64,000 bases of DNA from a virus (lineage: Duplodnaviria > Caudoviricetes), in IMG/VR virus record IMGVR_UViG_3300013999_000001, positions 1-64,000 of that record; one strand, given 5' to 3'. This document shows, piece after piece, positions 32,416 to 36,818 of this stretch. Each line of letters starts with the position of its first letter. Position 1 is the first letter of the stretch. The notes below the pieces were generated by a model. The model saw only the letters and a program-made list of their open reading frames with translations, ran no database searches and had not been told where the DNA came from. The position numbers and the translations under genes are program-made.

Positions 32416-33720
32416 ATGTTATTTATGAGCGCAATGCCCCAACCAGAGCAAGCCACACCCATCACTGACGAAGTTCTGGAAATGTCGTTCCAGGCCATCT
32501 ACAACCAGCTGAACCTGACACTGCGGCGCATCGGCGGCGACGACCTCGACCGTCGCGCGCTGGAAATGTGTATTGGCACCGTTGAACAGCTGCATATTGA
32601 TTTTGCCACCCGCCTGAACGAAAACGCTGACTCCTATAACGCACTATGCGACACGCTTGAAGAATTCCAGTCCAGGCTTAACGAACTGTCACCGCTACAG
32701 GATGAAATTGCCCGTATCCGCCAGGACGCAGAGGACCGCATTGAAGCTACGCAAAACGCGGTAGCAATGGAACGGCTGGAAATGGAAAATAAGGCTATCA
32801 ATCTCCAGGGCGAAATTGACTCCATGGCCGATCAGATCGTCACGGCTGCACTGGCACATAAAGCCCTGGAGTTGACCCACAAAAATTATGTTCGCGCCAA
32901 CCCGACCAACATGCACGATGAGCGGAAAAAGCTGGAAAAAGACGTGTCTTCCCTACGTGCCGAGCGTAAAGACCTGAATAAGCGCCTCCAGGCACTGCAA
33001 AGCAAGCTCAACGTGGCCGATAAGGAGATCGCTGAGTCTCGCCGGAAGACCGTTCGCGCCCATCAGGAGCGTGATCGTCTTGATGCGCTGTATTCGCACC
33101 TGAAAAAGCGCGTTGATCTCCATGACGGGCGCGAGGACATGCGGCACTACACATTTGTGACCCCGGAAGGACACGAAGTCACCTTTTACATCTACAACTA
33201 CCATTTCGGTCTGATGACCGCACGTAAGGTGTTTGGCGATCAGGTTATCGAACTGGCTGACTTCCATTACCAGATCCGTACTGCTGCCATGTACGCCGTG
33301 GACGTGGTGCCGAGCGTCTGGGGGCGTCCGGTTTATCATGCAAATGACATGATCGAGCTGGCGCGCAACAGCGAACTGGACGAAGAGCTGAGCCGTCGCA
33401 TTCAGGCTCGCATGCTGCTGGATTTCCCGAAGATCCACCAGCGCATTCAGGATGCGAACAATGTTCCAATTGACGAGTTGCAGCTGACGGCCAAGACCCT
33501 GAGCGTACTGAAAAAGGCGGGCTGCGAGTCGGTGCTGGACATAGCCGCCGTGCTGCCTAAAGACCGCTTGAACATTACTGGCGTGGGCGAAAAGATGGCG
33601 GCAGAAATTGAGCCTGCAATCAAAAGTTGGTGTATCCGCTGGTCGAAGGAACACGGTGACGTTGAGCCCCACCTGAGCAACGTCCTGGCGTCATCAAAAT
33701 CACGAAAAGCGCACTGGTAA
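32416..33720 (+). CDS. pmgS: PmgS-like coiled-coil protein with C-terminal RNA polymerase alpha-CTD-like (HhH) domain
   Basis: 434 aa; LRRIGGDDLDRR resembles P1 PmgS N-terminus; VPIDELQLTAKTLSVLKKAG...ITGVGEK resembles alphaCTD. Confidence 0.75.
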   Translation: MLFMSAMPQPEQATPITDEVLEMSFQAIYNQLNLTLRRIGGDDLDRRALEMCIGTVEQLHIDFATRLNENADSYNALCDTLEEFQSRLNELSPLQDEIARIRQDAEDRIEATQNAVAMERLEMENKAINLQGEIDSMADQIVTAALAHKALELTHKNYVRANPTNMHDERKKLEKDVSSLRAERKDLNKRLQALQSKLNVADKEIAESRRKTVRAHQERDRLDALYSHLKKRVDLHDGREDMRHYTFVTPEGHEVTFYIYNYHFGLMTARKVFGDQVIELADFHYQIRTAAMYAVDVVPSVWGRPVYHANDMIELARNSELDEELSRRIQARMLLDFPKIHQRIQDANNVPIDELQLTAKTLSVLKKAGCESVLDIAAVLPKDRLNITGVGEKMAAEIEPAIKSWCIRWSKEHGDVEPHLSNVLASSKSRKAHW

Positions 33721-33737
33721 ACAATAAAATAAAAATT

Positions 33738-33778
33738 CCTTAGAATTTATTGCATATGATGGCGCAGTTAGGTACATT
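33738..33778 (+). promoter_or_regulatory. Candidate C1 operator abutting a sigma70 promoter at the head of the ncRNA island
   Basis: CCTTAGAATTT (33738-48) then TTGCAT-17 nt-TACATT (33750-78). Confidence 0.6.
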
Positions 33779-33819
33779 TTCTGACGCCAAGCAACAAATT
33801 CCTTAATTGCTGTGTAGTC

Positions 33820-33849
33820 CGGGTTAGCGCTTTGTTAACCCGTTTTTTT
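33820..33849 (+). terminator. Terminator/attenuator hairpin about 35-65 nt after the promoter
   Basis: CGGGTTAGC-GCTTT-GTTAACCCG plus T7. Confidence 0.65.
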
Positions 33850-35400
33850 CCGGCTTTCGCTGGTCGTATTGCCAAACTTATTCCCGCTTGTGTTTATTTT
33901 TCGCGGTAGTACGACCAGCAAAAACCGGATGTAAGTATGACCCTCTGCGGGCGGTAAGTTATGGAAACGAAAGTTCTATCAGCGTTAAATCAGCACCGGG
34001 GCCAGCGTCCATAACTGCTAAGTGGTCCCACCGGGAGGCACCCGGCTTATATCCGGTTTTTGATTGTTTTGTTGGGGCGAGGCCTGCGCATCATGAGGCT
34101 TACCCACGTTTGTAGCAGGCGTACATTTAGCGATGATCCTACGCCGCCCGGGTTCCTTTCTCGGGTTTGCACAAACGAGTATGGGAAATGATGAAGTCGC
34201 CCGGGAGGGTATTGTTCAGCTAACCACTGTGGCGAAACGGTTTGGAAGTCCGGGAGAGACGGACGTGTTATGCCGCTGTCACTGGCATAACGCTAAAGAC
34301 ATGGATCAGGATATGTTGCCAGCACCTGAGTTGCACCCGCTACCGGCAAGGTTGTTAGGCCGGGGAGCCGTCGTAACGGGCCACGCGGCGCAAGGTTGTC
34401 AAGCCGTGTCTTTTGCGTTGTGAAGTGCCGATGTAAGGCAACATAGATTCGATGCACCCGATTCTTTAACCTCTAAAGGAGACGAGGATAATGTTCTGGT
34501 TGGGTGCATCGTCTTAGTTCGTAACGGGTCGCTCTCTGTCAGCATGAAGAGTGTGTTATGGAGAAGGTGAACGACAAGTAGCCCTCCCTGTCACGGCAGT
34601 GAACGCGGTTGACGACGTAATCCCGCGCATAGAACGCCCCGTGAGGCTTAAACCCCGTCCGCCTCGCCCTCGTAAGGGGCCAGAATTCGAGACGGTAATT
34701 GTGTGTTCGTTATGCGCTCCTTCCACCTCTTCTGGAATCGCTCTGCGCTTAGCGACCACACAATTCCGGTTTCACCGGTTAGTGCTTCGAACACACTAAC
34801 TTAACCCATTCGATCTTACAGCTATCAGTCGGCTGGTGGGCCGGAATACCAACATCTAAAGGCGTTGCTATGGGCATAAATACACTTCCAGCGCCTTTAA
34901 ATGTTGTGGCTAATGCAGCTATGCGCATGCGGGTAAGTGGTTAGGTAGTAGCGTAGGTAAGAAAGTCATTAGGCCGAGCTTTGTGAAATGTTCCCGTTCA
35001 GGGTGGATAACCAGCCAAAGAACACCGGGAGGCACCCGGGGCCACAACAGAAACCGATGGAGCAACCAATAAACGGTAATCCGTAATGGATAAAAATCCG
35101 TTGAGGAAGGAGCCAGGCCGGAATCGTCACCGGCACCACAATCAAAGAGCGCGGGCGTGAAAAACTGTAACCTGCGACCAGCACATAACACCGAACCCCA
35201 ATCGGGCTGGGCAAAACATGGTGTAGGTGGATCGCTCTTTTTGATTGTGGTGACTAAAGCCCGGTGATTCTGTTTTCAGAGTTCAGGATCATGCAGGGGA
35301 AACCGTCAGAATGGGGACGGGAGGGAAACGCCATTACAGCCACCTGAAAGGGGGGCCACCACAAACCTCACCCGCGCGATCGCGCAACCATGCAGGACTT
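33849..35400 (+). ncRNA. Island of multiple structured RNA-like domains (unclassified)
   Basis: No convincing ORF; about nine long-range helices found by eye, e.g. 33919-35/34046-62, 34107-13/34171-77, 34312-20/34437-45, 34450-59/34502-11, 34697-705/34757-65, 34851-67/34889-905, 34902-10/35041-49, 35134-51/35233-52. Confidence 0.6.
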
Positions 35401-35404
35401 ACCC

Positions 35405-35524
35405 ATGACGATATTTGAATTTATGGATAGAAATCCATGGTGGACGCTGATTTACCTTCTGTTGATCAGTGAGGGCTTGGTGGCAACCGTCAAGCAGCTG
35501 CGAAAACCGAAAAAGGAACGATAG
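35405..35524 (+). CDS. 39-aa small membrane protein (not in ORF track)
   Basis: MTIFEFMDRNPWWTLIYLLLISEGLVATVKQLRKPKKER; AGGA RBS; TM segment followed by basic tail. Confidence 0.55.
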   Translation: MTIFEFMDRNPWWTLIYLLLISEGLVATVKQLRKPKKER

Positions 35525-35531
35525 CGTTTAA

Positions 35532-35616
35532 GCATGGGTGGCGGAGAAGGCCGAACGCAGTTAGTTAACTCCTGTTCAGTCAGGTCATCGCAGGTTCGAA
35601 TCCTGCCCCATGCATC
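35532..35616 (+). pseudogene. tRNA-like RNA with aberrant anticodon arm
   Basis: GCATGG(G)/(C)CCATGC acceptor, D-arm GCG/CGC, perfect T-arm GCAGG-TTCGAAT-CCTGC; no canonical 7-nt anticodon loop; ends A-TCA. Confidence 0.6.
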
Positions 35617-35620
35617 AGTT

Positions 35621-35697
35621 AGGCCCCTTAACTCAGCGGAGAGAGTAAGCCCCTCATAAGGGCGGAGTCGCCGGTTCGAATCCGGCAGGGGCCACCA
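35621..35697 (+). tRNA. trnI: tRNA with CAT anticodon, Ile2 (lysidine) type, like P1 trnI
   Basis: GGCCCCT acceptor, GCCC-CTCATAA-GGGC anticodon arm, GCCGG-TTCGAAT-CCGGC T-arm, encoded CCA; acceptor stem matches E. coli ileX. Confidence 0.9.
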
Positions 35698-35747
35698 TAG
35701 CTTTTACAGTCACACAAAGATGTGGCGACCGCGACTCCGTAATGTTC

Positions 35748-35771
35748 GGGCCCATTGTGGCCCCTTTTTTT
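35748..35771 (+). terminator. Rho-independent terminator after tRNA
   Basis: GGGCC-CATTGT-GGCCC plus T-run. Confidence 0.65.
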
Positions 35772-35794
35772 ATGCAAAGGACCCAAAACAGATC

Positions 35795-36271
35795 ATGCAG
35801 CAACAATTCAAAGATATGCCGCTTTATGTCGGCACCCTGTATTCCAACGCCAAACAGATGACGCGCGCAGCTTATAACGAATTCCGTGGATGGAAGTTGC
35901 CCGCGAACGAGCAGGGCGATGATATGGGCTATCTGGTGATTAACCATCAGGGCCAGAACAATACGACGCATTGCACCGGCTATGTCAGCTGGGTGCCGAA
36001 AGATCTCTTCGAAAGTACCCACCTGCTGGTGGGCGACGTGACCGACCTGCCACCATTCCACCAGCGTATTAAAGCTGAACGGACGCAATTAATAGATCGC
36101 ATTCAAAAGCTGGTGGCATTCATCGGTATGGACAGCTTTCTGGACCTCGACGCCTTTGAACAGAGCCGCCTGAATAGCCAGCTGGACTACATGCAGAGCT
36201 ATCGTCGTGAGCTGGACGAGCGCCTGATTGCGCTGTCGGAAGCCGACAAAGAAAAAGCCACGGCGGCATAA
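35795..36271 (+). CDS. Two-domain phage protein: YxGT...GYxSWxPK domain plus crAss001_48-like helical domain
   Basis: 158 aa from ATG 35795; YVGTLYSNAKQMTRAAYNEFRGWKLP...GYVSWVPKDLFE; HQRIKAERTQLIDRIQKLVAFI...QLDYMQSYRRELDERL. Confidence 0.7.
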   Translation: MQQQFKDMPLYVGTLYSNAKQMTRAAYNEFRGWKLPANEQGDDMGYLVINHQGQNNTTHCTGYVSWVPKDLFESTHLLVGDVTDLPPFHQRIKAERTQLIDRIQKLVAFIGMDSFLDLDAFEQSRLNSQLDYMQSYRRELDERLIALSEADKEKATAA

Positions 36272-36279
36272 CGATACAC

Positions 36280-36412
36280 TGAGACGTGCTCAAGCGAGCT
36301 GCACCGCAGGCGGGAGGAAAGACCGGTATACAGTCGGCTGGGCTGCACCTGGGCAGTCAATACCAAAACTGAGCGGACCGGAAATAAGCAGGGGTAGCGC
36401 CCTGGTGTCTCA
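36280..36412 (+). ncRNA. Structured RNA candidate with tRNA-top-half-like architecture
   Basis: TGAGACGT/GTGTCTCA closing stem, GCTC-AAGC-GAGC hairpin, terminal CAGGG-GTAGCG-CCCTG hairpin abutting the closing strand. Confidence 0.5.
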
Positions 36413-36657: not shown

Positions 36658-36684
36658 AGGCCCGGAGAAATCCAGGCCTTTTTT
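36658..36684 (+). terminator. Rho-independent terminator
   Basis: AGGCC-CGGA-GAAA-TCC-AGGCCT plus T-run. Confidence 0.7.
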
Positions 36685-36783
36685 ATTTGTGCGTCGTGCA
36701 ACGTGTTACGGATCGCATTTACTACACGGCGTTAAGGGTGGTAAAAAAAACATCAACGTAAAAGTGGATCTTAAAAAAGTTTT

Positions 36784-36810
36784 CCTTAGAATTACTATTA
36801 AGTTCTAAGG
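36784..36810. promoter_or_regulatory. Double (inverted) candidate C1 operator upstream of lpa
   Basis: CCTTAGAATTA and, on the minus strand, CCTTAGAACT; second copy overlaps the RBS. Confidence 0.6.
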
Positions 36811-36818
36811 AGGCGGGC

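Follow-up and report, generated by a model that had tools for sequence, protein, structure and literature searches.

Diverged STnc100/PasD-type cores and two uncatalogued RNA families in a tRNA-bearing RNA island of a P1-like phage

A non-coding island with two tRNA genes

The virus record IMGVR_UViG_3300013999_000001 (Duplodnaviria; Caudoviricetes; 85.8 kb) was analyzed over its first 64,000 nucleotides, a stretch referred to below as the window, and the subject of this report is an RNA-rich island located at 33.7-35.7 kb, together with one further RNA module that lies beyond one small gene after it. The source of the window is a P1-like temperate phage, which encodes homologues of PmgS, Lpa, Ulx, PacA/PacB and partition proteins and contains a DarB-sized open reading frame (ORF); a true c4 RNA gene is present at 67670-67757 of the record (77.7 bits with the C4 model, RF01695). 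Except for one 44-codon ORF the island is non-coding, with a promoter-like site at its start and a terminator-like site at its end, and the longest ORF in the interval 33720-35390 has at most 96 codons. The island is shown here to be a chain of separately conserved, exchangeable RNA modules plus two tRNA genes. Its central element, represented by domain 1 (33919-34062) and domain 2 (34902-35049), both on the + strand, is a known RNA family in a new setting, the core of the STnc100/PasD small RNAs, and it is accompanied by two neighbouring families that have not been catalogued. A near-identity search of phage records gave no match, and distant searches returned P1-type partial matches and two Leclercia plasmids, and nothing else.

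Domains 1 and 2 are diverged STnc100/PasD cores

Domains 1 and 2 share the 17-mer CACCGGGAGGCACCCGG, exact copies of which are located on the + strand at 34029-34045 and 35023-35039. There is no third copy in the window or in the 85.8-kb record, even when 2-3 mismatches are allowed, and shuffled sequences give on average 0.2 matches with up to 3 mismatches. Domain 1 is closed by a helix of 17 base pairs (bp) formed by CAAAAACCGGATGTAAG (33919-33935) and CTTATATCCGGTTTTTG (34046-34062), and domain 2 by a 10-bp helix formed by TGTTGTGGCT (34902-34911) and GGCCACAACA (35040-35049); in both domains the hairpin CCGGG-AGGCA-CCCGG directly abuts the 3' strand of the closing helix. The repeat and its placement had been noticed in an earlier inspection of the letters alone (the sequence-only reading), and both observations are confirmed at these positions. 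The same reading took the domains to be unrelated RNAs with differing interiors, that is, variable cargo carried by a shared T-arm/acceptor-like handle. The handle idea is right in outline but wrong on the unrelated cargo: domains 1 and 2 have the same internal P2 hairpin and P3/P4 pseudoknot, and both are homologous over their whole length to the STnc100/PasD core.

This identity is supported by the genome search for the 17-mer and the covariance model of its flanks that had been proposed as a check. The exact 17-mer is present in more than 120 viral contigs, often in several copies about 250 bases apart, and almost all copies have the layout (N3)GGTG-AAT-CCCCCTGTGCGGAGGGG or a variant thereof, about 60-90 variable bases, the 17-mer and CACC(N3), where the last three bases are complementary to the first three. 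All eight copies tested, from three of these 17-mer loci, were assigned by Rfam to STnc100 (RF02076) with 69-132 bits. PasD is related to STnc100, a prophage small-RNA family (bioRxiv 10.64898/2026.05.13.724894). Domain 2 scores 22.4 bits with RF02076 over model positions 31-147, which is under the 47-bit gathering cut-off, and standard annotation would therefore miss it; domain 1 is matched in the hairpin only (15.7 bits), and the copy in phage P1 reaches 33.4 bits. A model of the STnc100 core alone (R1), derived from 34 diverse copies of the family, gives 62.6 bits for domain 2 (E = 2e-15) and 30.7 bits for domain 1 (E = 5e-7), 77 and 38 bits for the homologues in two Leclercia phage-plasmids, and 71.5 bits for the copy of phage P1, located between upl and tciA (P1 70078-70201). 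On the basis of these core-model scores, domains 1 and 2 are homologous to each other and to the known family, of whose structured core they are diverged copies. Aligned to the core model, both domains display the architecture P1-AAU-P2-P4-P5 in this order. Neither has an intrinsic terminator or 3' tail of its own, whereas typical copies of the family carry a terminator 30-45 bases after helix P1.

The core folds like a cloverleaf, with helix P1, the AAU linker, hairpin P2 (loop CUNNGCG), a P3/P4 pseudoknot, and hairpin P5 placed on P1. P3 and P4 constitute an H-type pseudoknot, in which the loop of the P4 hairpin pairs with bases just 3' of P2, at the position held by the anticodon arm in tRNA. 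The P4 hairpin usually comprises 8-9 bp and ends on the first C of the 17-mer, and P5 is a 5-bp hairpin with the fixed loop AGGCA that is separated from P1 by no unpaired base; stacking of the two is deduced from the secondary structure. In domain 1 (P1 33919-33935/34046-34062), a P2-like hairpin with the loop CUCUGCG is located at 33940-33955, followed by P3 at 33958-33965/34008-34015 (8 bp), P4 at 33998-34004/34023-34029 (7 bp) and P5 at 34031-34045. The corresponding elements of domain 2 (P1 34902-34911/35040-35049) are P2 at 34915-34917/34928-34930, with a loop containing CUAUGCG, P3 at 34938-34943/35008-35013 (6 bp), P4 at 34996-34999/35020-35023 (4 bp) and P5 at 35025-35039. The P3/P4 pseudoknot is a feature derived in the present analysis and is unmarked in the Rfam consensus structure shown for the domain 2 match.

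Every helix of the shared fold is backed by covariation. The outer positions of P1 vary across the family between UA, CG, UG, GC and AU. Within the 34 diverse copies, a P4 of at least 5 bp is found in 97%, compared with 50% of shuffles, and a P3 of at least 6 bp in 94%, compared with 42%. A P3 of this length forms in 88% of these copies with their own partner strand as opposed to 29% with the partner strand of another copy, and the helix is realized by 30 distinct pairing sequences. A further check was made on copies from loci selected by other motifs, which are hence unbiased towards the 17-mer: here 92.6% of the cells pair versus 76% in shuffles, 18 of 26 pairs vary on both sides, and the P5 stem occurs as CCGGG/CCCGG, CCUGG/CCAGG, GGGGG/CCCCC and GGUGG/CCACC with the loop AGGCA kept. 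Because the stem covaries around a fixed loop in copies not selected by the 17-mer, the hairpin is not merely a DNA motif, and because no U run follows it on the + strand, it is not a terminator; the view that it works only as a DNA element or terminator, named at the outset as a way in which the proposal might fail, is thereby contradicted. A literature search for the hairpin sequence found no report.

The closing helix, too, is kept in homologues, through compensatory changes that retain pairing. Relative to the Leclercia copies, the closing helix of domain 1 shows three compensated pairs, and in the relative L136 its P3 and P4 differ in sequence yet pair (TTTCTGG/CCAGAAA and GGTATCA/TGATACC, respectively); taken together, P1, P3 and P4 of domain 1 are fully compensated in relatives, and the pseudoknot pairings of domains 1 and 2 are compensated in L136, Leclercia and phage P1. 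The compensatory pairing in the relatives of domain 1 identifies these elements as RNA structures on the + strand, as the sequence-only reading had proposed, and in line with this the helices covary and include G-U pairs. When the sequences are folded singly, the energies are unremarkable (z = -1.8 for domain 2 and z = -0.6 for domain 3, the module beyond the island), and the support for domains 2 and 3 consequently comes from covariation and not from folding energy.

Neighbouring modules and their counterparts in phage P1

Next to domain 2 lies a conserved module of about 85 bases (35050-35134, + strand) that ends in GCCGG-AATCGTCA-CCGGC and is present in phages P1 and P7. The module is 84-86% identical to P1, and 115 viral contigs, mostly P1-sized, contain its hairpin motif. 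The hairpin with its trailing ACCA, GCCGG-AATCGTCA-CCGGC-ACCA, had been described before and is indeed located at 35117-35138; the ACCA is not conserved in other copies. Rfam searches at permissive thresholds gave nothing credible for this module, for domain 4 (see below) or for 34063-34900. The GCCGG module is a conserved phage RNA family absent from Rfam.

A protein-coding reading of the stretch conserved in P1 was rejected: its likeness to the P1 protein Plp jumps between two reading frames, and a likeness split in this manner implies constraint on the nucleotides. The phage studied here does not preserve the Plp reading frame. In P1, plp (L003 3837-4406, corresponding to NC_005856 69472-70041) and upl (L003 3950-4566) are annotated on the minus strand, opposite the + strand RNA modules. 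Both are probably spurious genes, and the P1 reference annotation may be wrong at this point.

Further downstream, a long hairpin CACCACAATCAAAGAGCG...CGCTCTTTTTGATTGTGGTG (35134-35252, + strand; z = -4.18) and domain 4 (35244-35366, + strand; z = -2.66) are found. Domain 4 has the same outer layout as the other domains and a different interior; its last hairpin abuts the 3' strand of the closing helix, which is formed by UUGUGGUG and CACCACAA and is all that the STnc100-core model recognizes (9.5 bits). Relatives of domain 4 are located in L131 (2121-2240) and in P1 (L003 4182-4283). UUGUGGUG at 35245-35252 has two mutually exclusive partners, since CACCACAA is present both at 35135-35142, where pairing produces the long hairpin, and at 35358-35365, where it produces the closing helix of domain 4. 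The same either/or arrangement is seen in P1, and the segment 35134-35366 could be a structural switch.

The setting of these modules in P1 is the C1-controlled ban operon, which has the order promoter, dicF-like region, trnA, trnT, about 730 bases, and tciA; the module types of the island are the same as those between trnT and tciA. Right after trnT, at P1 ~69512-69585 (L003 3877-3950), there is a tRNA-like remnant; its T arm, AGGGTTCGAATCCCT, is perfect, and a normal cloverleaf is absent. The remnant has a long closing helix, GGTAAGGGTA/TACCCTTACC, and other P1-type contigs differ from it in sequence and have the same closing helix.

The module beyond the island, domain 3 (36280-36412, + strand), displays the layout that the sequence-only reading had assigned to it, with CAGGG-GUAGCG-CCCUG (36389-36404) in front of the 3' strand of the closing helix TGAGAC (36280-36285)/GTCTCA (36407-36412); the domain further contains a GCUC-AAGC-GAGC hairpin and a complex middle. 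Its hairpin GCAGGGGTAGCGCCCTG occurs in 82 viral contigs, high-G+C ones among them. Members of the family are closed by a helix of 6 to 20 bp that covaries strongly; its 5' strand leads straight into a 4-bp P2 with the loop AAGC, its 3' strand is directly preceded by the terminal hairpin, and the middle is conserved. In an alignment of 22 copies, covariation is seen in the closing helix and in P2, and 11 of 26 pairs vary on both sides. The model built from it (R2) gives 122.5 bits for domain 3, a score obtained by construction, as this copy was part of the building alignment. No Rfam family matches domain 3, permissive thresholds included. When the two models were cross-searched, the STnc100-core model missed domain 3 and the domain-3 model missed the STnc100 copies, which lends no support to common ancestry. 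Domain 3 is thus a separate widespread phage RNA family with the outer layout of the STnc100 core, and Rfam is incomplete with respect to at least two neighbouring module families, those found in 82 and 115 viral contigs. In a lambda-like contig, a domain-3 element is part of the early-left operon, where it has a CI-like repressor gene on one side and a recombination gene on the other. In the high-G+C contig L178 (2226-2472), an element of the domain-3 type begins immediately 3' of a tRNA-like sequence, which scores 49.9 bits with the Rfam tRNA model, yet is not called by ARAGORN.

Upstream of domain 1 the island begins with a promoter-like site, TAAACA-17-TAGAAT (33718-33746, + strand), a consensus match only, which overlaps TCCTTAGAA. 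This element occurs once here (33737-33745) and once as an inverted pair just before lpa (36783-36811), and it is probably the operator of the C1-like repressor of this phage. By analogy with the C1-controlled ban promoter of P1, 33718-33746 would likely be the repressor-controlled start of the RNA/tRNA unit. In the leader, a consensus scan detects a terminator-like hairpin with a U run (33820-33849, + strand), which could be an attenuator or the end of a short leader RNA. Just before domain 1 there is a stable hairpin, CTGGTCGTA...TACGACCAG (33862-33917, + strand; folding z = -4.45), which is kept in the Leclercia plasmids. The two STnc100-type cores are separated by some 840 ORF-poor bases (34063-34901, + strand), which are conserved in close relatives only, i.e., two Leclercia plasmids, L136 and a Pantoea plasmid. 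When the minus strand is read, a 73-base element within them (34695-34767) shows a closing helix and a hairpin loop of the CUAAGCG type.

The two tRNA genes at 35532-35697 (+ strand), a tRNA-Val-like gene (35532-35614) and a tRNA-Met gene (35622-35697), were called by ARAGORN as well as by the tRNA model. Of the two, the tRNA-Val-like gene is atypical, with 83 bases, 39.8 bits with the tRNA model, and the anticodon placed at position 36 by ARAGORN; in a related phage, represented by a metatranscriptome contig, 35526-35620 is replaced by 14 other bases. The consensus scan places a hairpin resembling an intrinsic terminator behind the tRNA genes (35748-35770, + strand) and a second terminator-like hairpin at the end of the following non-coding stretch, ahead of lpa (36658-36686, + strand). 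The only sizeable gene within the RNA region, 35795-36271, encodes a 158-residue protein with a C-terminal domain related to crAss001_48 (Pfam PF21825).

Proposed processing, tRNA likeness and relation to known RNAs

We favour, with a probability of roughly 60%, an interpretation in which processing of the operon transcript yields stable compact RNAs that have their ends set by the P1/P5 stack and act in trans. Cleavage of the long transcript would probably produce RNAs about 85 to 145 bases in length, with the terminal P1/P5 stack defining and protecting the ends. Once released, the RNAs would act through base pairing, in the manner of the Hfq-bound STnc100/PasD/EcOnc27 RNAs, or alternatively through a protein that binds the fixed P5 loop. 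DicF RNA of the dicB operon and the c4 RNA of P1 are released from longer transcripts. For the family itself, eleven STnc100 copies are transcribed in E. coli O157 EDL933, one of which has been confirmed by Northern blot (PMC5331693), and the Hfq-bound RNA EcOnc27 overlaps a family copy downstream of stx2 (PMC12711010). The recurrence of the core without a 3' tail or terminator suggests that the fold, and not a 3' seed-plus-terminator, is the functional unit.

Several observations weigh against this interpretation. The Rfam scores of the window copies are under the family cut-off, and as these copies have neither 3' tail nor terminator, Hfq-type action is not simply transferable to them. The promoter and terminator calls are consensus matches with a frequency no higher than in shuffled sequence. 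Of 60 domain-3 loci, 3 have any tRNA gene, which is near the element on the same strand in 2, and since this family is rarely close to tRNA genes, the tRNA context is not general. Finally, public RNA data gave no usable reads for this phage's own copies: the raw reads of two transcriptome runs from the likely host species include zero on the stretch, and two metagenome RNA libraries provide only contigs, possibly derived from DNA and carrying no information on ends, strand or level, so that neither source is evidence either way.

A different reading takes the closing helix and terminal hairpin to be a true acceptor/T-arm mimic, a common handle on different RNAs that RNase P would recognize at the 5' side and RNase Z or the CCA enzyme at the 3' side, or that a Ro-like protein would bind. 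The outline does match: P1 (7 bp) and P5 (5 bp) are contiguous and amount to the 12 stacked pairs of the acceptor/T stack of tRNA, a 3-base linker leads to a hairpin at the D-arm position, the middle is variable, and this outer layout is common to four island domains. The modules are, furthermore, on the same strand as the tRNA genes, both here and in a third of the 17-mer loci examined (20 of 60 with tRNA genes no further than about 1 kb away, in every case on the same strand; 37 of the remaining 40 are without any tRNA gene). The P1 c4 RNA and the P4 CI RNA are phage RNAs that RNase P matures via an acceptor-like stem, which makes processing by tRNA enzymes a reasonable idea, and the c4 closing helix GGUGG/CCACC resembles the GGUG/CACC of the STnc100 core. 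The details, on the other hand, depart from tRNA. The P5 loop AGGCA has 5 bases, as opposed to the 7-base T-loop UUCRANY. The bases after the closing helix are ATTG, GAAA and CCCA in the window and variable across the family, with no conserved NCCA. The tRNA model and ARAGORN call only 35532-35614 and 35622-35697 and leave the 17-mer domains and domain 3 undetected, as does the C4 model. Moreover, homology of the 17-mer domains throughout their length is at odds with a handle on unrelated cargo, the domain-3 family is mostly far from tRNA genes, and multi-branch RNAs commonly have a last hairpin that abuts the closing helix. A literature search for studies of these RNAs as tRNA-like molecules or in connection with RNase P found nothing. 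The tRNA likeness is one of outline only: what stands of the T-arm/acceptor-like stack proposed in the sequence-only reading is the terminal hairpin stacked on the closing helix, and neither a T-loop nor a conserved CCA nor a match to the tRNA model accompanies it. True mimicry appears doubtful to us.

We regard as unlikely the wider proposal of a single superfamily of pseudoknotted phage RNAs with a cloverleaf shape, which would unite the STnc100-type cores with the domain-3 family and the other modules. In this view the stacked closing helix and the fixed terminal hairpin would be a genuine tRNA mimic, either read by tRNA-processing or tRNA-modifying enzymes or serving as a decoy for host defences that attack tRNA. 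If true, the proposal would account for the position of these RNAs next to tRNA genes in the repressor-controlled operons of temperate phages.

That the modules instead act in cis, as attenuators, antiterminators, riboswitch-like elements or signals for processing or stability that set the output of the tRNAs and the downstream genes, is in our judgement quite unlikely. The modules are embedded in an operon without promoters or terminators of their own, the leader contains a terminator-like hairpin, 35245-35252 has two possible partners in a switch-like manner, the domain-3 family occurs within the early-left operon of a lambda-like prophage, and a pseudoknot with fixed junction bases is typical of folds that bind a ligand or protein. 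Typical STnc100 copies, however, have their own terminator, occur in tandem arrays and accumulate as discrete RNAs (PMC5331693), and the core is accompanied by neither an expression platform nor a conserved downstream gene. Very improbable, lastly, is a function of the repeat at the level of DNA (a recombination or protein-binding site, or a terminator) or protein (e.g., the opposite-strand plp and upl), for although P1 annotates these genes opposite the homologous stretch and the consensus scan rates the hairpin's reverse complement as terminator-like, the helices covary and include G-U pairs, which would read A-C on the opposite strand, the hairpin stem is compensated around a constant loop and lacks a U run on the + strand, and the Plp likeness is split over two frames.

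Among known RNAs, tRNA and the tRNA-like domain of the bacterial Y RNA YrlA share with the island cores the cloverleaf outline, the 7+5 stacked pairs, the hairpin at the D position and the variable middle; the cores differ from them in having no T-loop, no GG signature in the D-loop and no CCA, and in that a pseudoknot replaces the anticodon arm, and neither the tRNA model nor any further Rfam family gives a match. The c4 antisense RNA of P1/P7 (RF01695) is likewise a small structured RNA, from the same type of phage and with a GGUGG/CCACC closing helix, but it lacks the P2, pseudoknot and P5 arrangement; over the record, the C4 model finds only the true c4 at 67670-67757 and does not match the island domains. 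DicF, from the dicB leader, is comparable as a small RNA inside a repressor-controlled phage operon, and P1 annotates a dicF-like region upstream of the homologous stretch of tRNA genes and modules; no sequence or model match to DicF is present in the window.

The same core, in the same order as in the window copies, is found in STnc100 (RF02076), in PasD1/PasD2 of enteropathogenic E. coli, and in the overlapping EcOnc27/sRNA103 of E. coli O157. The likeness comprises the GGUG/CACC-type closing helix, the AAU linker, the P2 loop CUNNGCG, P4 and an identical P5, CCGGG-AGGCA-CCCGG, and it extends to the setting, as these RNAs are phage-borne in enterobacteria and often adjoin tRNA genes. The window copies are distinguished by scores under the Rfam cut-off, by having no 3' tail or terminator of their own, by their position within a long P1-like phage operon and, in domain 1, by a 17-bp closing helix whose sequence is unrelated. 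P1-type phages hence also carry a small regulatory RNA catalogued from Shiga-toxin and other lambdoid prophages, as a terminator-less core in a tRNA-bearing operon, and P1 offers a tractable system for the role of these common prophage RNAs.

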